Shown: in pieces, positions 1,316 through 10,460 of the stretch
Layout: each line of letters opens with the position of its first letter
How positions within the stretch are numbered: the first letter of the stretch is position 1
Source: a virus
Taxonomy: Duplodnaviria > Heunggongvirae > Uroviricota > Caudoviricetes
Direction: 5' to 3' (one strand)
DNA: 12,070 nucleotides
Virus record (IMG/VR): IMGVR_UViG_3300029721_000142
Notes under the pieces: model-generated
Database searches by the model: none
Told to the model about the DNA's origin: nothing
Seen by the model: the letters and a program-made list of their open reading frames with translations, nothing else
Made by a program: the position numbers and the translations under genes

Positions 1316-1595
1316 TTAAAAATCAGCCATCGTAATAACCATTTGATTTTTATAGGTGTACTGTTTTTTTATACACTGGCGAATTACTCTTAAAAATATG
1401 TAAAAAAGGCGTAAAAGTAAAATTTTATGCCTTTGCATCATAATGAATTAAAAGAGTTTTTATTCTCATTCCCCCTGCTTCTGTAAAACGACCGCCGCCA
1501 GTGTTTGCCATTCCACAAACACCCTGACACAATCCGACACAACCCAACCCAATAATCCACCCAATGACTCTTTAAGAAACAACAAAGGGGGAATT

Positions 1596-1784
1596 GTGTT
1601 AAGCACAGATCGCTTTATACGTGAAAAAGAATGTCAGCAACTTACAGGCCTGAGCCGCTCATGTCGGTACCGCCTGGAAAAAGCCGGACAATTCCCATCA
1701 CGGCGTAAGCTGGGCGGTCGTTCCGTTGGCTGGTCTTTATCCGAAGTTCTGGCATGGAAGGACAGCTGCGAGGCAGTTCACTAA
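1596..1784 (+). CDS. alpA: AlpA-family phage transcriptional regulator (small HTH, excisionase-like)
   Basis: 62-aa ORF with GTG start at 1596 and RBS aaaggggga upstream. The sequence LTGLSRSCRYRLEKAGQFPSRRKLGGRSVGWSLSEVLAWK matches the AlpA family pattern (ITGLSRST.YRL...G.FP....LG.R.V.W...E...W). Position immediately after int is typical of P4-like elements and Gram-negative PICIs. Confidence 0.85.
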   Translation: MLSTDRFIREKECQQLTGLSRSCRYRLEKAGQFPSRRKLGGRSVGWSLSEVLAWKDSCEAVH

Positions 1785-1836: not shown

Positions 1837-2212
1837 ATGAATACTGGATATTCTCCCGAACAAGGGCGGGGCTTCGTTCGTCCTGAAAAACAGAATCTGC
1901 AAAATTTTGCCGAAATTATTCCGGTTATTTCCGGCCTTACTGGCGGGAGTGAAACCAATATTGCTAACGCCAGAGCGTTGCAGATGTTTGATGATAAAAA
2001 GGGAGTAAATTTAACTTACACCCCTGACGGCAATCAGAATATGAGCATTATCTCTGAGTCAGGTTTCTACAAACTAATAAAAACAAAAAGCGCCCCGTTG
2101 CCGGAGCGCCTTTGTGAACAATTAACCTACTGCGCAAAAAATGAATCTGAGCAGTGGGATTATATCAACCATGTGGAGAAGCGCCACAATTGCCGAATAA
2201 CGGGCAAAACAA
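1837..2212 (+). pseudogene. Protein-like 5' part of a 423-codon ORF (1837..3108); probable 3'-truncated gene remnant, possibly with a Bro-N/antirepressor-like fragment
   Basis: The first ~125 codons have normal protein composition (ISESGFYKLIKTKSAPLPERL is faintly Bro-N-like). From about 2212 to 2922 the same frame becomes Cys/Ser/Arg-rich nonsense while the opposite strand holds two well-formed small genes and a terminator. The frame reopens as a plausible small gene only at 2923. No in-frame stop exists before 3108. Confidence 0.3.
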
Positions 2213-2233
2213 AGGCCACCCGCTACGGTGGCC
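2201..2233 (-). terminator. Rho-independent terminator for the minus-strand two-gene operon
   Basis: Perfect 7-bp stem GGCCACC / GGTGGCC (2214-2220 and 2227-2233) with a 6-nt loop. On the minus strand it is followed by TTTGTTTTG. It lies about 80 nt downstream of the 62-aa gene stop. Confidence 0.5.
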
Positions 2234-2312
2234 CCTCGACACAAGCTACACGTTATCCCCAACGCATGAGCATTGCCAACAATGCCACATTTGCGGCTGG
2301 TGGGCAATGCAA

Positions 2313-2501
2313 TCAGTCTGGTTCAGTTCGTTGCCATACCTGCAATGAGCGCTTTTCCCTGTACTCTTTAAGGAATTGCTCAAGGGCAAAAGCACATGGC
2401 GCGAATCTTTCTGATTCATGCTCTATCTTTCTGCGCCGTCTTTTCCGTGCCGGTGATAATGTTTTGGTCAATTCTTTATCGGTCATTGTGTTGTCCTGCA
2501 T
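2313..2501 (-). CDS. Small basic protein (62 aa), downstream partner of the RHH gene; function unknown
   Basis: ORF in the same frame and operon as the RHH gene. Contains an arginine/lysine cluster (ARKRRRRK) followed by a predicted helical segment. An alternative start exists at the second Met (MTDKEL...). Confidence 0.45.
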   Translation of the reverse strand: MQDNTMTDKELTKTLSPARKRRRRKIEHESERFAPCAFALEQFLKEYREKRSLQVWQRTEPD

Positions 2502-2543
2502 AGCAATGCGCCGTAGTTCCTCACACCACGGCGCTGATGGTGA

Positions 2544-2723
2544 TTACTCTGGTTCTTTGGCCTTGCGCCGCTGGCGATATTCAACTTCTCGTTTTAATGC
2601 CGCAGTAACAAATTGCCCCGTACTTTCGCCAGGCATTTTTACCGCCTCAACATTGTTCATAACTTCATGCGGAACCCTTGCCGCAACGGTTTGTGATTTT
2701 GCGTTTACTGCTTTTGTCGCCAT
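2544..2723 (-). CDS. Ribbon-helix-helix (CopG/Arc/MetJ-like) DNA-binding protein, 59 aa; candidate repressor or antitoxin
   Basis: Hand-translated from the minus strand (below the ORF-track size cutoff): MATKAVNAKSQTVAARVPHEVMNNVEAVKMPGESTGQFVTAALKREVEYRQRRKAKEPE. Layout is beta strand (TVAARVP), helix A, loop, helix B, typical of RHH proteins. RBS GAGGGG sits 7 nt upstream of the ATG and an in-frame stop lies 5 codons upstream. It faces the operator cluster at 2773-2826. Confidence 0.65.
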   Translation of the reverse strand: MATKAVNAKSQTVAARVPHEVMNNVEAVKMPGESTGQFVTAALKREVEYRQRRKAKEPE

Positions 2724-2772
2724 GTGGTGTACCCCTCATAAAAAACAAATGCAGTATGCAGGAAAAAAAATA

Positions 2773-2826
2773 AGTGTTCAACACTTGACGTGTTTAACAC
2801 CTGGGTTTAAATTGGTGTTCAACACC
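2773..2826. promoter_or_regulatory. Operator cluster: three copies of the palindrome GTGTT(C/T)AACAC overlapping divergent promoters
   Basis: Seen directly: aGTGTTcAACACt (2773-2785), GTGTTtAACAC (2790-2800), gGTGTTcAACACc (2814-2826). A plus-strand promoter candidate is TTGACG (2785-2790), 17-nt spacer, TAAATT (2808-2813). A minus-strand promoter candidate is TTGAAC, 17-nt spacer, CATACT upstream of the RHH gene. Operators overlap the -35, spacer and +1 regions. Confidence 0.6.
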
Positions 2827-2922
2827 TTGTTGGCGCAAGGTGCAGAAACGACGAAACCCGGCAGTGCGCTAACACTAACCGGGCTTCTAACCACCAACGA
2901 TAGCGAAAGTATCGAGGTAGCT

Positions 2923-3108
2923 ATGAGAAATCATACCACACACCCGCAAGGGCGGGACTCGCACGACCTGAATAAATACATCTGGCGTTTTATCGCCCTG
3001 AGCACGGCACAACCGCGCGTGATTACCATCGAGGCCACCAGCGAACAGGAAGCGCGTCAGCAATCTCCTGATGGCTGCGTGATGGTATTCGCTGCCCGTA
3101 TTCGCTAG
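2923..3108 (+). CDS. Small protein (61 aa), tentatively Icd-like/Ash-region-like; first gene of the early operon
   Basis: ATG at 2923 with RBS GAGGT 5 nt upstream. Protein MRNHTTHPQGRDSHDLNKYIWRFIALSTAQPRVITIEATSEQEARQQSPDGCVMVFAARIR. The ATSE.EAR....FAAR motif resembles small Icd-like proteins found upstream of replication genes in P4-like prophages (from memory, unverified). Confidence 0.45.
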   Translation: MRNHTTHPQGRDSHDLNKYIWRFIALSTAQPRVITIEATSEQEARQQSPDGCVMVFAARIR

Positions 3109-3794: not shown

Positions 3795-4094
3795 ATGAAA
3801 CTTAAATATTCTGGCTTAACTGCCAGTGGCAACACTCACCCTAAATTTACGCGCGGTGATATTTACCGCGACCAGTACGGCGGCACGGTAATGATTAAGG
3901 GCGTGGAAGAACGGCGCGTAACCTACCGCCGTGAAGGTTACGAATATGATTGCGTGATGCCTGTTTATCAGTTCCGGCGTGATTTTTCTCTGGTACAGAC
4001 CGCGCCGCATAACGTGCCCACCAGCAACGCCAGGGCACGGGCAAACATCCAGAAGCTGAAAACCATGATTAACGGATTCAGGGGCAAGAAATGA
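3795..4094 (+). CDS. Hypothetical protein (99 aa)
   Basis: ORF whose stop overlaps the rep start (ATGA at 4091-4094), implying translational coupling. No family recognised with confidence. Confidence 0.55.
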   Translation: MKLKYSGLTASGNTHPKFTRGDIYRDQYGGTVMIKGVEERRVTYRREGYEYDCVMPVYQFRRDFSLVQTAPHNVPTSNARARANIQKLKTMINGFRGKK

Positions 4095-5491
4095 AAAGCG
4101 CACCGAACTTAAAAAAACAGCCTTACGACAAGATGACCGAAGTCATTATTTTTGCGGGTAGTGATGCCTGGGCACATGCGAAACAGTGGCAGGAACAGGA
4201 CGGGCGACTGGCTGGCGATAATGTGCCTCCCGTTGTGCTGGCTGATGATCAACTGGATGAACTGGCAGACCTGAGAATCATCGACGAGGGGCGCTATTGT
4301 GTCCGGCTGTACAAGGCAGGCCACATCAGGCCATCAAATATTAATGCCATTGCGCACAAGCTGGCGGCGGCGGGTGTAACTGATGCGAATTATTACCCCG
4401 AAGGGATGCACAGCCATATGCGGGAGAACTGGCGCGAATACCTGGAACGGGTGCGCGGGAAAGAGCCGGTGGAAGAAAAAAACCACCAGCGAAAAACCAC
4501 GCTACCGATGAGCGTTGGATCTACCGGATACGACACGCAACTGGATTACGTGGTTAAGGGGATTATTCCGGCGGTATCGCTATGCAGCATATACGGGGCT
4601 AGCGGGTCCTATAAATCATTCCTTGCCGGATCGTGGGCGTGCCATGTTGCCACTGGTCGCCAGTGGGGAGGCCGCAGGGTTGCACATGGTGCGGTTCTCT
4701 ATGTGGTTGGTGAAGGCGGTATAGGTGTTCCGCGTCGTGTAAAAGCCTGGGAGGTTGTGCACGATGAGCAGGTGAAAAATCTGTATCTGGTAAACCGCCC
4801 CATCTTTCCGGCTGCCCCGCTTGATGTTGATGAAATGGTTATCGCTGCCCGTCAGGTGGAGCGGGAAACGGGTAAACCTGTACGCATGATTATTCTGGAT
4901 ACGCTGGCGCGTTGCTTTGGTGGGAATGATGAAAATGATTCCCGTGATATGGGGGCGTTTATCCGTGGTTGTGACGAACTGAAACGACGCACAGGGGCCA
5001 CGGTGCTGGTGGTTCACCATTCCGGCAAGGATGAGACGAAAGGCGCGCGCGGTTCCAGTGCATTTCGTGCTTCGCTGGATGCTGAATACCGGATACGCAG
5101 GGAGGACGCAGGAAGCGAAGCGCTGGTTATCTCATGCACCAAAATGAAGGACGCGGAGGAACTCAAAGAAGCCGCATATGACTTACGCGTGGTGGAGCTT
5201 TTTACCGACGCTGACGGTGAATTAATCACGTCGCTGGTGGTGGTGGATGATCCGCGCCCTCCTGTTGAACTGGAGCGCATCGAGGAGGCAGGGAACAAGA
5301 CGGAAAACCATACCGCGCTATGGGGGTGCATCCGTTCACGCACACAGAACGGCGACAAGTGCACGATCCCGCTGTTACGTGATGACATGAAAAAGCTGGG
5401 GTATGAAATGAAAAACTTCCGGCGCTGGCTGTACAAGCTGGAAAAAGATGGGGTTATTCGTATCGATGGGGATGATGTAGCGCCGCTATAA
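4091..5491 (+). CDS. Replication protein: RecA-fold RepA/DnaB-like ATPase (AAA_25 type) with an N-terminal TOPRIM-like region
   Basis: 466 aa. P-loop IYGASGSYKSFLAG, Walker B MIILDTLARC, and the RepA-type motif VLVVHHSGKDETKGARGSSAFRASLD. N-terminal EVIIFAGSDAWAHA ... PVVLADDQLDE is suggestive of a TOPRIM-like domain (inference). Followed immediately by an iteron array. Confidence 0.8.
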   Translation: MKSAPNLKKQPYDKMTEVIIFAGSDAWAHAKQWQEQDGRLAGDNVPPVVLADDQLDELADLRIIDEGRYCVRLYKAGHIRPSNINAIAHKLAAAGVTDANYYPEGMHSHMRENWREYLERVRGKEPVEEKNHQRKTTLPMSVGSTGYDTQLDYVVKGIIPAVSLCSIYGASGSYKSFLAGSWACHVATGRQWGGRRVAHGAVLYVVGEGGIGVPRRVKAWEVVHDEQVKNLYLVNRPIFPAAPLDVDEMVIAARQVERETGKPVRMIILDTLARCFGGNDENDSRDMGAFIRGCDELKRRTGATVLVVHHSGKDETKGARGSSAFRASLDAEYRIRREDAGSEALVISCTKMKDAEELKEAAYDLRVVELFTDADGELITSLVVVDDPRPPVELERIEEAGNKTENHTALWGCIRSRTQNGDKCTIPLLRDDMKKLGYEMKNFRRWLYKLEKDGVIRIDGDDVAPL

Positions 5492-5691: not shown

Positions 5692-5943
5692 ATGACCCAA
5701 AAACGCAGAGACAGAACAGAGCCAAAATATAAAGCGTTAGACATGACTGAGCACACCTTAAAGGTGGCAATCAGAACGATAGACCGCCACACGCGGGAAG
5801 GATACGCGAAGGAACATCCCGACCTGATAAGCGCATTCATGACCACGGCGGCGGCAAACTTTGCCACGCTGACAGAACGGGAGATTGCCGAAGCGGAACA
5901 GGTAACAACCATCAACGTTAAAACCGGAGAGGTGGAATCATGA
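5692..5943 (+). CDS. Hypothetical protein (83 aa)
   Basis: ATG at 5692 with RBS GAGAGG upstream. The ORF-track start at 5662 lies inside the iterons. The stop overlaps the ssb start (ATGA). Confidence 0.5.
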   Translation: MTQKRRDRTEPKYKALDMTEHTLKVAIRTIDRHTREGYAKEHPDLISAFMTTAAANFATLTEREIAEAEQVTTINVKTGEVES

Positions 5944-6350
5944 CAGCACAGATAGCCGCTTACGGGCGGCTGGTGGACGACCCGCAGGTAAAACAGACCA
6001 GCAAGGGCACACCGATGACGCTGGCGCGTATGGCGGTCCCCCTTCCGTGCAGCCAGGCAGATGACGGAACGGCGACGATGTGGTTATCCGTCCTGGCATT
6101 TGGCAGACAGGCCGAAGCACTGGAAAGGCACCGCAAGGGTGAACTCCTGAGCGTGGCGGGTAACATGCAGATCAGCCAGTGGACTGGGCAGAACGGAGAA
6201 ACGCGGCAGGGTTATCAGGTTATTGCAGACAGCGTAATCAGTGCCCGTGCGGCACGTCCTGGCGGGAACAGACGCAAAACCACAGGCACACAGGGTAATC
6301 AGCTACCAGCGGGAGGCGATGACCCTTACGGTGATGATATTCCGTTCTGA
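5940..6350 (+). CDS. ssb: Single-stranded DNA-binding protein (phage-type SSB)
   Basis: 136 aa. OB-fold-like core (IAAYGRLVDDPQVKQTSKG ... WLSVLAFGRQAE ... GELLSVAGNMQISQWTGQNGETRQGYQVIADSV), a Gly/Gln-rich linker, and the hallmark acidic C-terminal tail DDIPF. Confidence 0.9.
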   Translation: MTAQIAAYGRLVDDPQVKQTSKGTPMTLARMAVPLPCSQADDGTATMWLSVLAFGRQAEALERHRKGELLSVAGNMQISQWTGQNGETRQGYQVIADSVISARAARPGGNRRKTTGTQGNQLPAGGDDPYGDDIPF

Positions 6351-6360
6351 GGGGGTGAGG

Positions 6361-6609
6361 ATGGTACATGACCGCATAGCGGAGGAACTCGAGGCAAAAG
6401 GCTTTTACCGGAGGGCGGCGGCACGATGGGGTGAAGTCATGCAACTGGTGGAGACAGACAAGGAACGGCATCAGGTTACGATGCGACGGCTGGAATGTTC
6501 CAGGAAGGCACAGAGGCCACCGGAGCCGCCAACGGAGAACTATGCAGACCTGAGAAATGCAGTAAATCGCACTTACGCAGACATGGGGCTGAGCAAATTA
6601 GCAGAGTAG
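6361..6609 (+). CDS. PerC-family-like transcriptional regulator (82 aa)
   Basis: ATG at 6361 after RBS gaggggg; the ORF-track start at 6241 overlaps ssb and is rejected. The N-terminus MVHDRIAEELEAKGFYRRAAARWGEVM matches my recollection of the PerC family signature (LE.KGLYRRAA.RW). Last gene before the double terminator. Confidence 0.55.
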   Translation: MVHDRIAEELEAKGFYRRAAARWGEVMQLVETDKERHQVTMRRLECSRKAQRPPEPPTENYADLRNAVNRTYADMGLSKLAE

Positions 6610-6632
6610 GAATACCAGAACCACACCACACA

Positions 6633-6654
6633 GCCGGAGCAATCCGGCTTTTTT
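6633..6654 (+). terminator. Rho-independent terminator (GCCGGA gcaa TCCGGC + T6)
   Basis: Seen directly: 6-bp GC stem, 4-nt loop, six T residues, 24 nt after the PerC-like stop. Confidence 0.7.
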
Positions 6655-6660
6655 GCGCCC

Positions 6661-6702
6661 AAAAAAAGCCCGATAAGGTCAGAGGTGGCTTATCGGGCTT
6701 TT
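6661..6702. terminator. Second, bidirectional-type terminator (A7, GCCCGATAAG, 11-nt loop, CTTATCGGGC, T4)
   Basis: Seen directly: 10-bp perfect stem flanked by an A-run and a T-run. Tandem with the previous terminator, separating the early and late operons. Confidence 0.65.
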
Positions 6703-6779
6703 GCATATGAGGTTTTTTGGTGCACTGACACACATGATCGGGATAATCATTTCATAATTTGCAACGCAACTCAATTTCA

Positions 6780-6830
6780 TTGCACAAAATGCAATCATGA
6801 TTATAATCATAACTGGATGAACATCCAGTT
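6780..6830 (+). promoter_or_regulatory. Late-operon promoter (TTGCAC, 16-nt spacer, consensus TATAAT) embedded in two perfect palindromes
   Basis: Seen directly: -35 TTGCAC (6780-6785); -10 TATAAT (6802-6807); 14-bp palindrome ATGATTATAATCAT (6797-6810) covering the -10; palindrome AACTGGATG-aa-CATCCAGTT (6811-6830) covering the predicted +1. RBS aagagga precedes the ATG at 6864. Confidence 0.55.
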
Positions 6831-6863
6831 ATGATTTTTTAAGTCAAAGAGGAATTTCTTACT

Positions 6864-7070
6864 ATGGCTGAAGAGAAAAAAGGCGGTGTTTCGGTGTACA
6901 TAAGCCCCGACATCGTGAAGGCGCTCAAGGAACGCCACCAGCAGAACGTAAAAGCAGGCATTGCGGCAGGACTTGATCCGCTGGCGATGGTTGAGCCGTC
7001 AACAGGCTGGCAGGTACGCGCCTATTTACGCGCGGCGCTGGGTATGAATCAGGTTCACGGGGGTGAATAA
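6864..7070 (+). CDS. Hypothetical protein (68 aa), first gene of the late/capsid operon
   Basis: ORF with a good RBS. Its stop overlaps the capsid gene start (TAATG), implying translational coupling. Function unknown; a scaffold or size-determination role is speculation. Confidence 0.6.
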   Translation: MAEEKKGGVSVYISPDIVKALKERHQQNVKAGIAAGLDPLAMVEPSTGWQVRAYLRAALGMNQVHGGE

Positions 7071-8125
7071 TGACAGTAAAAGCAATGGCACTTAACACTA
7101 ACCAGCTTTTTGCGTACCTGAATCGCGGGGATATTGCGGAATTTAAATTCAGTCCGCTGTTTACCACGCTGTTTTTCCCGAACGTGGCGACATTCAGCAC
7201 GCAAAACATCATGCTGGATACCCTGGACATTGAAGAAGTCACCATGTCGGCGTTTTGTTCGCCTATGGTGGGTAGCCAGGTTCAGCGCGATAAAGGGTAC
7301 GAAACCAGCACGATTAAACCTGGCTACATGAAGCCAAAGCACGAAATCGATCCAACGAAAACCATCATGCGCATGGCTGGAGAAGATCCGGCACAGCTTA
7401 ACGACCCTACCTATCGCCGTATGCGCCTGATTACTGGCAATATGCGCCGCCAGATAAACGCCATAAAAGCGCGCGTGGAATGGCTGGCGGTAAATGCGGT
7501 AACGACCGGAAAAAACATCATTGAAGGCGAAGGCATAGAGCGCTATGAAATCGACTGGAAGATACCGGAAAAAAACATCATAGAGCAGGCCGACGGGAAA
7601 AAATGGTCAGAGCAGGACAAAGAAACCCACGATCCAATCTATGATATCGAACTATACGCCGATCAGGCTGGTTGCCCCGCAAACGTCATGATTATGGGCG
7701 CTGAGGTATGGCGAACGTTACGCAGCTTTAAAAAATTCCGTGAGCTGTACGATCTTTCCCGTGGTTCAGAGTCCGCCGCAGAGCTGGCCTGTAAAAACCT
7801 GGGCGAAGTGGTGAGCTTTAAAGGCTATCTGGGCGATATTGCCCTTATCGTCTATTCCGGCAAATACACTGACAGCGACGGCACAGAAAAATATTTCCTT
7901 GAGCCTGATTTGCTTGTCCTGGGCAACACCAACAATAAAGGGCTGGTGGCCTATGGTGCGATTATGGATCAGGACGCAGTAAGAACGGGCGCAACGCAAA
8001 ACATGTTTTACCCGAAAAACTGGATTGAGGACGGCGATCCGGCGATTGAGTACGTGCAGACGCACAGCGCACCGCAGCCGGTTCCGGCAGATATTCGCAA
8101 ATTTGTTACCGTCAAAATTGGTTAA
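7070..8125 (+). CDS. Major capsid protein, lambda gpE-like (HK97 fold)
   Basis: 351 aa. Blocks of recalled similarity to lambda gpE (341 aa): EFKFSPLFTTLFF vs KFKFDPLFLRLFF; KPGYMKPKHEIDP vs TPGYVKPKHEVNP; DPTYRRMRLITGNMR vs DPAYRRRRIIMQNMR; KWSEQDKETHDPIYDIELYA vs EWSKRDKSTYDPTDDIEAYA; YPKNWIEDGDPAIEY vs YPKNWVTTGDPAREF. Similar length. Confidence 0.9.
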   Translation: MTVKAMALNTNQLFAYLNRGDIAEFKFSPLFTTLFFPNVATFSTQNIMLDTLDIEEVTMSAFCSPMVGSQVQRDKGYETSTIKPGYMKPKHEIDPTKTIMRMAGEDPAQLNDPTYRRMRLITGNMRRQINAIKARVEWLAVNAVTTGKNIIEGEGIERYEIDWKIPEKNIIEQADGKKWSEQDKETHDPIYDIELYADQAGCPANVMIMGAEVWRTLRSFKKFRELYDLSRGSESAAELACKNLGEVVSFKGYLGDIALIVYSGKYTDSDGTEKYFLEPDLLVLGNTNNKGLVAYGAIMDQDAVRTGATQNMFYPKNWIEDGDPAIEYVQTHSAPQPVPADIRKFVTVKIG

Positions 8126-8136
8126 CGGGGGATTCT

Positions 8137-8472
8137 ATGGACACTCCATACATTGAGTTATTTGCAGGCAGTCAGCAGGTCGCCACGACGCTGGTACATT
8201 TTGCCGCTGATGCTGGCGTTATTCAGGAATTTACCCCGCTGATGCTGGCGGACAATGGCGAGTTTAAGCCGTGGGATGGTAAGGAATCTGGCAAGGCTGT
8301 TTATCTGACCTCGTACCCTGTGGACACGTCAAAGCAGAAATCAGCACAGTGTTACAAGACGGGGATATTCAATATTGCCGCCGTTAACTGGCCTGAGAGC
8401 GTCGACACCGATGCGAAAAAATGCGCCGCCTTTGCGGGTTCCGGCGTATCCGTTCAGCCGCTGGCCCGATAA
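8137..8472 (+). CDS. Head decoration protein, lambda gpD-like
   Basis: 111 aa vs lambda gpD 110 aa. Recalled motif similarity: TPLMLADNGEFKPWDG vs TPLMLDTSSRKLVAWDG; YKTGIF vs YKSGTF; WPE; KKCAAFAGSGVS vs KKRTAFAGTAIS. Gene order is E-like then D-like, the reverse of lambda. Confidence 0.85.
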   Translation: MDTPYIELFAGSQQVATTLVHFAADAGVIQEFTPLMLADNGEFKPWDGKESGKAVYLTSYPVDTSKQKSAQCYKTGIFNIAAVNWPESVDTDAKKCAAFAGSGVSVQPLAR

Positions 8473-8484
8473 GCAGGGGGAACG

Positions 8485-8898
8485 ATGGCAACGAATGAAA
8501 GCATCATGACGCTACCGCTGGCGAGTAAATTTAAAGCCGAAGCGCGGGCAATGGCTGACAGAGGTTTATCAACCTATGAGGCCGTATATCAACTAAACAA
8601 ACTGGAAGAGCAGGACAAGCCGCGCGCTGATGCGATTATGGCGCTTCATGAGCATAAAGACTATCAGCCGCTGTTACGTGCAATGGCAAACGTGCCATGT
8701 ATTAGCGTCGATAATGCTCGTGAAATCCTGAACATGACCATAGAGCAGGAGCGCCCAAAGGTTGCACCAGAGCTTACCGCAGCCTTTGAAAACTTTATGG
8801 ACATGCACAGCCCGCAAGCCGTATCAGCTGGCATGGCATACGATGGCAGAAACCAGGGCGATGACGGCGACATCGATCGCATACTGAAAACCATCTGA
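8485..8898 (+). CDS. Hypothetical protein (137 aa) between the decoration gene and cos
   Basis: ORF with RBS cagggggaacg, followed by a terminator. No family recognised. It occupies the position that gpFI has after gene E in lambda (positional analogy only). Confidence 0.6.
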   Translation: MATNESIMTLPLASKFKAEARAMADRGLSTYEAVYQLNKLEEQDKPRADAIMALHEHKDYQPLLRAMANVPCISVDNAREILNMTIEQERPKVAPELTAAFENFMDMHSPQAVSAGMAYDGRNQGDDGDIDRILKTI

Positions 8899-8927: not shown

Positions 8928-8992
8928 CGGGTCCTTCCTGGAATTATGGCCCGTTACGGGGCGGCGACCTCGCGGGTTTTCGCTATTTATGA
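8928..8992 (+). other. cos-like element, left copy: cosQ-like flank + cosN (GGGCGGCGACCT, 8959-8970) + 22 bp of lambda-like left-end sequence; no R-site array
   Basis: Seen directly: cgggtccttcctggaattatggcccgttacg GGGCGGCGACCT cgcgggttttcgctatttatga. The 12-mer equals the phage lambda cohesive end, and the flanks resemble the lambda right end (ACGGGTCCTTTCCGG...GTTACG) and left end (CGCGGGTTTTCGCTATTTATGA), quoted from memory. It is an inverted duplicate (63/65) of 9676-9740. Confidence 0.75.
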
Positions 8993-9059
8993 CGTTTTTC
9001 CGTGAAGGTGACACCACCACCACTTGATTAATATTTAACCATGCAGTTAAGGTAACATT

Positions 9060-9494
9060 ATGATTGATAAAGCTTGTTTTGTAAGTCAGCAGGAAATAGC
9101 TGAACATTTCAAGGTTAACAGAACCACTATTCGCGCATGGACCAAACAGGGGATGCCGTATCTTAATGCGGATCGCGGAAAGTCTGGCGGTTATCACATC
9201 GGGCATACATTGCTTTGGTCTTCAGGTAAAAGCCGTCTTGAGGCCATCAGATATCACGTAGAAACCAGTGCGCTGGAAAAAATTATGTTTGCCAGGCTGC
9301 TTTCATCTGAGCGTGACGAGTACTCCAGTGAAGAAACAGAACATCGATTTGATGAAGGTTTGCAGATTTACGGCTATTCACCGGAAGATGTGAGCAAGGC
9401 ACGAAATAAAATGGCTGGCTTTCTGGCTGGGTGGCGTCATGCCGTAAGCGTTCGCCGTGCCAGCATGGAGCAATCAGCCGATACAGAACAGTAA
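9060..9494 (+). CDS. Small terminase subunit-like protein with a Nu1-type N-terminal DNA-binding domain; candidate packaging-specificity or redirection factor
   Basis: 144 aa. N-terminus MIDKACFVSQQEIAEHFKVNRTTIRAWTKQGMPYLNADRGKSGGYHI parallels lambda Nu1 MEVNKKQLADIFGASIRTIQNWQEQGMPVLRGGGKGNEVLY (winged HTH). The C-terminal half is unlike the Nu1 region that binds gpA. The gene sits between the two cos copies. Confidence 0.8.
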   Translation: MIDKACFVSQQEIAEHFKVNRTTIRAWTKQGMPYLNADRGKSGGYHIGHTLLWSSGKSRLEAIRYHVETSALEKIMFARLLSSERDEYSSEETEHRFDEGLQIYGYSPEDVSKARNKMAGFLAGWRHAVSVRRASMEQSADTEQ

Positions 9495-9562
9495 AGCCGA
9501 TAACTTGTTAATCACTCGCAGCAATGCATGTGATTTGTGCACACTTTCGGTTAACTGGTTCG

Positions 9563-9740
9563 ATGTCCGGTTTTAGTGTCTGTTTTTTGCGCATGTCCGG
9601 TTCATGGAAAGCATGTTTTTATATTTTTCATATGGTTAACTTGCAGAGAAACCGGACATGGATCCCGAAAAATTTTCATAAATAGTGAAAACGCGCGAGG
9701 TCGCCGCCCCGTAACGGGCCATAATTCCAGGAAGGACCCG
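9563..9740 (-). other. Complete cos-like site in inverted orientation: cosQ-like flank, cosN (9698-9709), three R-type repeats ATGTCCGGTT, AT-rich bend region
   Basis: Seen directly. cosN lies on the minus strand as aggtcgccgccc. Repeat copies are at 9563-9572 and 9593-9602 (direct) and 9650-9659 (inverted, nearest cosN), with an AT-rich segment at 9611-9633 between them. This mirrors the lambda cosN-R3-I1-R2-R1 layout but with a different repeat sequence (lambda R elements contain CGTTTCC). Confidence 0.75.
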
Positions 9741-10217: not shown

Positions 10218-10460
10218 TCTTCCACAATCCCCCATTGGGGGAGGCTGGGCGGCCTGCTGTGGGCTTTTCCACCATTGGTGGAAAGGCGCACATCTGGATC
10301 ATCATTACGGTGATCAAGGGTATGTAAAACCCACCAGCCTGATTGACATTTAACCGGAAAAAAGCCAGGTAGCCCCGTTATGGGGATCCCCATATCGACA
10401 TTAACGCCCCTCATGAATTGGCGCGCTTCCCCCTGGAAAGATGACCCGCCTGTATATTTC

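Follow-up and report, generated by a model that had tools for sequence, protein, structure and literature searches.

In Staphylococcus aureus pathogenicity islands (SaPIs), the packaging module known as operon I is under LexA control (Ubeda et al. 2007, as summarized in PMC5052747). Here we analyze a window of 12,070 nucleotides (the whole stretch of DNA studied, IMG/VR virus record IMGVR_UViG_3300029721_000142), which is a complete Escherichia coli phage satellite, namely, a phage-inducible chromosomal island (PICI) of the EcCICFT073 type sited between roxA and phoQ. Positions 6740 to 6863 of this window probably constitute the promoter and operator of the capsid/packaging operon, with an operator for the host repressor LexA predicted at 6811-6830, through which the operon would be derepressed in the SOS response. 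The arrangement resembles SaPI operon I in that a satellite morphogenesis/packaging operon has its own promoter with an operator for the host SOS repressor, apart from the master switch of the island. However, the host is Gram negative, the LexA motif is a different one (CTG-N10-CAG), and the genes are unrelated (lambda gpE/gpD-like capsid and decoration genes here, terS/cpm in SaPIs). Moreover, the master switch is the activator AlpA instead of the repressor Stl, and LexA control is predicted here.

Among the closest known systems is EcCICFT073, the prototype cos PICI of Gram-negative bacteria, which shares with the window the phoQ-adjacent insertion, the gene order (capsid genes c1498 to c1501), two cosN sites, and Rpp. 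Its spacer between perC and the capsid genes differs from that of the window at 3 of 257 positions, and its LexA box is identical. It differs in that a RepA-like helicase in the window replaces a primase, and in the segment after alpA. In two papers on EcCICFT073 (PMC6092414 and PMC6739421), LexA occurs only in the reference lists, and LexA control of the capsid operon is not discussed; judging from the literature consulted, no earlier description of such control appears to exist for the capsid genes of Gram-negative PICIs.

The predicted operator, AACTGGATGAACATCCAGTT, is a 20-bp dyad of the form CTG-N10-CAG. It is the core of a palindrome, AACTGGATG-aa-CATCCAGTT, which a preliminary description of this DNA had placed on the start region and which is indeed found there. 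Its arms, CTGGAT and ATCCAG, recur unchanged in the K-12 ruvA box (CGCTGGATATCTATCCAGCA) and agree with those of the cho box. With the LexA consensus (TACTGTATATATATACAGTA) it agrees at 13 of 20 positions, ruvA and cho at 14 of 20. For scoring, a matrix of symmetric counts was made from 16 K-12 boxes, each of which was confirmed at its SOS gene in the MG1655 genome (NC_000913.3). The capsid promoter box has a heterology index (HI) of 6.2 (the window's best value), or of 6.36 once ruvA and cho are excluded from the matrix, whereupon those two score 10.0 and 9.1. When each of the 16 true K-12 boxes was left out in turn, HI ranged from 2.0 to 16.1 (median, 7.7). The box is thus similar to the ruvAB and cho boxes in its variant half-sites, its 20-bp dyad, and its HI. 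In contrast to them, it has a different central four bases, resides in a mobile element within a longer perfect palindrome, and directly follows a consensus -10 hexamer. Specificity was high in all three backgrounds: (i) in 73.6 kb of K-12 DNA, all 15 matches at HI ≤ 9 were known boxes, with 0 false; (ii) Markov shuffles gave about 2e-7 matches per position at HI ≤ 6.3; and (iii) in 1.38 Mb of unrelated loci, matches at HI ≤ 8 were confined to three sites, in two other PICIs.

The box starts 3 nt after the TATAAT hexamer and lies upstream of a conserved ribosome-binding site, within a promoter and around a start that are themselves predicted. The start is expected at about 6812-6815; because the box covers it, bound LexA would block RNA polymerase. 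Thus, the core of the second palindrome is most likely an operator for a dimer of the host LexA protein, as predicted from these features. The preliminary description had placed a dimeric repressor at the start site, encoded by the island or its helper and freed upon helper infection. The operator itself, as a dyad, is supported by our analysis; the source of the repressor and its release are not, since the good match to a LexA box makes a host-encoded repressor, released by the SOS response, most likely.

The promoter elements named in that description (TTGCAC, a 16-nt spacer, and TATAAT) are present, and they are accompanied by a Shine-Dalgarno sequence that is invariant in our promoter alignment (alignment A1). 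The -10 hexamer matches the consensus at all 6 positions. A strong promoter, as had been supposed, is not established, because only 3 of 6 positions of the -35 hexamer agree with TTGACA. This is below the -35 threshold of a consensus promoter scan and explains why that scan did not list the promoter. Within the -35 hexamer, TTGC is invariant in alignment A1, and EcCICFT073 reads TTGCTC. As had been proposed, the capsid cluster is a transcription unit of its own, placed behind two terminators and provided with a conserved sigma-70-type promoter.

Conservation was assessed on two sets of islands. The first set (n = 61) had been retrieved with the pattern of an upstream dyad (dyad 1; see below), so that the conservation of this dyad within it is circular; it was therefore measured again in a second set of 80 islands that were chosen by their capsid protein and comprise 45 distinct promoter variants. 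A CTG-N10-CAG box is found at the same offset in 54 of the 61 islands of the first set and in 79 of the 80 capsid-selected islands. Likewise, TTGC-N18-TATAAT is kept in 79 of the latter 80; islands of the L002 type have TAAAAT. In alignment A1, the CTG and CAG triplets are invariant, while the center (AA, TT, or TA) and the two outermost positions vary. In a Salmonella island (capsid protein, 68% identical), GACTGGATGAAAATCCAGTA stands straight after TATAAT. The box of a Lelliottia island (59% identical) is canonical and unrelated in sequence, CACTGTTTTTTCATACAGTT (HI 5.8), and lies 26 nt ahead of the first capsid operon gene. The Salmonella and Lelliottia boxes would represent an independent footprint of LexA control. 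From these sequence elements, their statistical strength, and their conservation, all of which are observed, we infer LexA binding, the start site, and SOS inducibility.

We propose the following course of events. (i) As read from the sequence and its conservation, the early operon would end at the two intrinsic terminators after perC. (ii) The capsid operon would be transcribed from its own sigma-70-type promoter and would be held off in undamaged cells by a host LexA dimer on the box from about -3 to +17. (iii) DNA damage, by stimulating LexA self-cleavage through RecA, would derepress the capsid operon. (iv) The same signal would induce the lambdoid helper prophage, which switches on alpA (PMC6092414). 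If this is correct, the LexA operator of the capsid operon adds a direct input from the host SOS response to AlpA-controlled Gram-negative PICIs, mirroring SaPI operon I and suggesting convergent wiring in unrelated satellites. The spacer between perC and the capsid genes is present in 595 to 620 of 5426 complete E. coli genomes (about 11%), including those of CFT073, ATCC 25922, and O157:H7 (O-island 51). Because it is so frequent, SOS-inducing antibiotics would, under the same proviso, switch on satellite genes in many clinical strains. The established EcCICFT073 system would allow the prediction to be tested directly.

A second LexA-like box (TACTGTTTTTTTATACACTG), with CAC in place of CAG, is located in the spacer between int and alpA, 237 nt before alpA; it is the second best match in the window. 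Related islands have different boxes in the same spacer (AGCTGTACAGAAAACCAGTA, TACTGGTTTTTTATACACTA, and AACTGTACAAAAAAACAGTA), with HI values of 4.8 to 9.5. In one of them (L135), a strong box (HI 4.8) lies between a TATGAT hexamer resembling a -10 element and an alpA-like open reading frame (ORF). These differing boxes suggest that the SOS input to such satellites is wired in more than one way. The coordinates of all features are compiled in Table 1.

Table 1. Features of the satellite island in the 12,070-nt window (positions are those of the window)
Feature	Position	Strand	Description
Integrase gene	1-1230
Second LexA-like box TACTGTTTTTTTATACACTG	1359-1378		int-alpA spacer; HI 8.0; CAC for CAG
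AlpA gene	1596-1784		PF05930
RgdR/DUF4222 gene	3795-4094
RepA-like helicase gene	4091-5491
SSB gene	5940-6350
PerC-family gene	6361-6609	+	82 aa, PchE-like; last of early/replication operon; PF06069, E 6.4e-36
Intrinsic terminator 1	6632-6655	+	7-bp G+C-rich stem (6632-6649) and T6; terminator scan, RNA fold
Terminator 2	6664-6702		inverted repeat, bidirectional in form; 14-nt arms between A run and T run
Conserved dyad 1, ATTTCA-N5-TGCAAC	6749-6765		2 mismatches to ATTGCA-N5-TGCAAT
Conserved dyad 2, ATTGCA-N5-TGCAAT	6779-6795		perfect match; overlaps -35 and spacer
-35 hexamer TTGCAC	6780-6785	+	3/6 match to TTGACA
First palindrome ATGATTATAATCAT	6797-6810		14 bp; -10 and flanks
-10 hexamer TATAAT	6802-6807	+	16 nt after -35; 6/6 match
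Long inverted repeat and T run	6805-6842	+	15 + 15 nt; RNA shape of a terminator hairpin
Predicted LexA (SOS) box AACTGGATGAACATCCAGTT	6811-6830		covers about -3 to +17 of predicted start; HI 6.2
Shine-Dalgarno sequence AAGAGGA	6847-6853	+	first gene of capsid operon; invariant in alignment A1
Capsid operon	6864-8898	+	68-aa protein, gpE-like major capsid (PF03864, E 2e-52), gpD-like decoration (PF02924, E 2.5e-17), 137-aa protein
Packaging region	8959-9709		two lambda-type cosN 12-mers around rpp

Several points weigh against LexA control of the capsid operon. Support for the operator is computational throughout, and the LexA matrix is one that we built from 16 sites and not the published one. 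The -35 hexamer is weak, with 3 of 6 positions matched. The perfect palindrome extends 6 nt on each side beyond what LexA needs, and its outer pairs show some two-sided changes. According to published work on EcCICFT073, AlpA is the master activator, and the induction of alpA depends on the helper and not on the SOS response; the same paper neither mentions LexA control of these genes nor reports a test of it (PMC6092414). Finally, no box is found at this place in L002-type E. coli islands, in the capsid-forming PICI (cf-PICI) L004, in islands of Edwardsiella, Serratia, Cedecea, and Scandinavium, or in a 56% E. coli type and a 52% Salmonella type.

Among the alternatives, an RNA hairpin survives best, although we give it only a small chance. 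In this reading, the 32-bp inverted repeat with its T run acts mainly as RNA, either as a third terminator or insulator against transcription running on from the early operon or as a stabilizing 5' stem-loop, and the likeness to a LexA box is incidental. The second palindrome is in fact longer than first reported: its perfect arms measure 15 nt (6805-6819 and 6822-6836), with a T run after them, and in none of 300 Markov shuffles of the window did arms exceed 12 nt. The repeat is listed by a terminator scan and folds as RNA at -17.7 kcal/mol (z = -5.3) into a stem of 14 to 15 bp with only 4 G-C pairs. Across 32 variants, 95.8% of the cells are paired, and three pairs, all in the outer arms, have changed on both sides; shuffling reached the observed two-sided counts in 3 of 500 trials for pairs and in 0 of 500 for cells. 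One-sided changes mostly yield G-U on the + strand (16 cells), and in the Salmonella island the outer arms AATCAT/ATGATT survive an indel. However, a transcript beginning 7 nt after TATAAT does not contain the left outer arm, and the hairpin therefore cannot terminate the capsid operon's own RNA; besides, only transcription from farther upstream would include the whole hairpin, and two stronger terminators already lie 110 to 180 nt upstream. An alternative -10 hexamer, CATAAT (6753-6758), from which the whole hairpin would be transcribed, was dropped, as it is without a conserved -35 element.

The pattern of sequence change also argues against a hairpin as the main function. The pair 6810/6831 is broken in 12 of the 32 variants, and uncompensated changes in the upper stem approach the LexA consensus: G to A at 6819 (GGATA) and C to A at 6825 (CATACAG) break the hairpin and lower HI to 5.3 to 5.5, as expected of a LexA site and not of a stem. 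The Lelliottia box, likewise, is a poor hairpin and a good LexA box. Template-switch mutation can yield two-sided changes in inverted repeats without selection, and the changes seen here may have arisen in this way. Nevertheless, the two-sided changes in the outer-arm pairs indicate that a second constraint exists besides LexA. The outer arms may serve as a reserve insulator that prevents read-through, or they may have arisen as a by-product when template-switch mutation acted on a quasi-palindrome, and hairpin and LexA functions could coexist in the long repeat. No known RNA family came near its gathering score at the promoter region.

Next to the LexA box, the region contains two dyads of the general form ATTKCA-N5-TGCAAY, each 17 bp, which are 30 bp apart and centered near -57 and -27. 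Both are absent from the preliminary description, although they are the most widely conserved dyads of the region. Among the 80 capsid-selected islands, the exact pattern of dyad 1 is kept in 72 and that of dyad 2 in 75. The dyads also occur in L002-type islands; the Salmonella island keeps both, and an Edwardsiella island has two perfect TTGCA-N5-TGCAA dyads. The cf-PICI L004, which has an HK97-type head module, shares both dyads and TATAAT (L004, 4757-5281) and has a longer, different leader without a LexA box; the shared elements suggest that the promoter module has been exchanged between PICI classes. Because the dyads are more widely conserved than the LexA box, they point to a second regulator, for which they probably are the binding sites. 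Readings of the dyads or of the AT-rich repeats as sites for sigma-54, NtrC, NsrR, a marbox, IHF, CytR, or Fur were rejected by eye for poor fit to the spacing or the conserved positions. For CRP, the best candidates were matches with 3 mismatches, which occur at chance frequency.

A tentative extension of the LexA model is that of a gate with two keys: LexA would hold the start site, and a second regulator would act on the dyads, which would then serve Gram-negative PICIs in general as the site of late control, while the wiring of LexA would differ among islands. If so, islands with a strong box directly before alpA would be SOS inducible without a helper signal. It is unlikely, in our estimate, and slightly more so than the hairpin, that the dyad pair is decisive and binds an activator or an AlpA- or Q-like loading factor from the early operon of the PICI, with the LexA-like box adding little. 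The wide occurrence of the dyads, from main-type and L002-type E. coli islands and L004 to Salmonella and Edwardsiella, speaks for such a role. In addition, dyad 2 is placed between -35 and -10, as is the AlpA-binding element of the Pseudomonas aeruginosa alpB promoter, behind which a terminator lies (PMC7969949), and the AlpA of the island belongs to the same Pfam family, PF05930. The likeness to the AlpA system of P. aeruginosa and to lambdoid Q antitermination extends to a hairpin and T run located before the first gene (PMC7969949). However, the Pseudomonas element, GGGACG-N5-GGTA, is unrelated in sequence, and the hairpin of the window overlaps the -10 hexamer and is truncated in the transcript of this promoter; we found no evidence of AlpA/Q-type antitermination at the capsid promoter in the sequence or in the transcript geometry. 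The motif is linked to no protein. No similar dyad occurs at the alpA promoter of the island, even though AlpA autoactivates, and the types of AlpA (53 to 100% identical or undetected) and integrase vary greatly among islands with near-identical dyads. This alternative also leaves the statistical strength and the independent recurrence of the LexA box unexplained.

The preliminary description had also regarded the 14-bp palindrome over the -10 hexamer as an operator. The palindrome is present, and its 12-bp core (TGATTATAATCA), which contains the -10 hexamer, is invariant in the main clade (alignment A1). Its proposed role found no support. It is near chance level: about 0.95 palindromes of 14 bp are found per Markov-shuffled window, and P is 0.027 in 164 nt of the local AT-rich composition. 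Alone, the first palindrome is only marginally beyond chance. For the most part, it consists of the -10 hexamer and of flanks that are part of the long inverted repeat. Two alternative partners are available to AATCAT (6805-6810), namely, ATGATT at 6797-6802 and ATGATT at 6831-6836. The outermost pair of the first palindrome (6797/6810) is A-T in 14, C-G in 8, and unpaired in 10 of the 32 variants, and the sequence is not palindromic in L002-type or cf-PICI promoters. The half-site ATAATCAT occurs 5 times in the window, against an expectation of 0.46, and 3 of these copies are in the promoter region. The copy at 6743-6750 that had been pointed out is there, but lacks conservation: EcCICFT073 has ATAAACAT instead, and other relatives vary.

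Least probable is the model of that description, in which a dimeric repressor encoded by the island or helper occupies both palindromes and is freed when a helper infects, the regulator being the PerC-like protein or AlpA: both palindromes exist and overlap the -10 hexamer and the start, AlpA is required for the PICI cycle (PMC6092414), and the outermost pair of the first palindrome changes from A-T to C-G in 8 variants, but the host LexA box accounts for the second palindrome at high specificity, the first is not retained in L002-type and cf-PICI promoters and is near chance level, near-identical promoters coexist with diverse Int and AlpA types, perC is often missing (see below), and the spacer between perC and the capsid genes showed no similarity above chance to phage DNA that would indicate operators or late promoters shared with helpers.

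A role of the PerC-like protein as candidate regulator is not borne out by its distribution. The gene does not consistently accompany this promoter: of 60 islands that have the promoter and in which the interval from SSB to the promoter is covered, 27 lack the gene, and 21 of these 27 keep the LexA box. The gene thus behaves as optional cargo, which agrees with its known link to regulation of LEE (PMC6092414), and not as a regulator of the capsid promoter, in whose predicted mechanism it has no part. The double terminator reported between perC and the capsid operon is present. The two terminators jointly fold at -36.2 kcal/mol (z = -4.4), and L002-type islands have a two-hairpin arrangement as well, of different sequence.

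The assignment of the window to the EcCICFT073 type follows from its gene content. It has int, alpA, a replication module, cos sites, rpp, a size of about 10 kb, and its own attachment site, and it has no lysis or tail genes. The exact lambda cosN 12-mer GGGCGGCGACCT occurs twice in opposed orientation, at 8959-8970 (+) and 9698-9709 (-), on either side of rpp (9060-9494); the two copies correspond to cos1 and cos2 described for EcCICFT073. A cos site within the promoter region was thus ruled out. The Rpp protein resembles the RppC structure 6hlk (E 5e-31). In the window, phoQ lies on the opposite strand, and a near-identical island is located between roxA and phoQ in E. coli 181.1. A scan of genome contigs with capsid peptides gave no match; in a 17-mer scan of the contigs, the matches listed were chance matches in unrelated taxa. 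In the literature, we found no transcription start or SOS expression data for the capsid operon genes.

The proteins of the capsid operon also match phrog_3255 and phrog_1999. A reading of the 68-aa first gene product as a ribbon-helix-helix autoregulator was unsupported: its model consists of two helices (pLDDT 73) without a fold match at E ≤ 0.001, and a sequence search of the PDB gave nothing meaningful. The 137-aa protein (8485-8898, phrog_1999) shows weak similarity to a family of head maturation proteases, in their C-terminal part (phrog_53, E 1.7e-10), and may be a scaffold-like fragment. In more distantly related islands (L342 to L349; capsid protein, 52 to 56% identical), a second AlpA-family gene (PF05930, 114 to 145 aa; for example, L342, 4402-4746) is found within the capsid operon, directly after the decoration gene, in the slot that the 137-aa gene occupies in the window. 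The Salmonella relative L338 has a hok/gef-family toxin gene (PF01848, 5452-5604) 3' of its Nu1-like gene.

Outside these modules, a 423-aa ORF without a Pfam match (1837-3108) follows straight after alpA and is possibly an accessory or defense gene. In L001, the closest complete island, this segment is different, with short genes annotated as Icd-like and YlcI/YnfO. Immediately 3' of the integrase gene (1250-1316), there is a run of about eight short RAACAAC-type direct repeats, which could be arm-type sites for the recombinase or excisionase. The right end of the island (10228-10400) contains several short perfect inverted repeats, including one with 9-nt arms at 10266 and a 16-bp palindrome at 10379.

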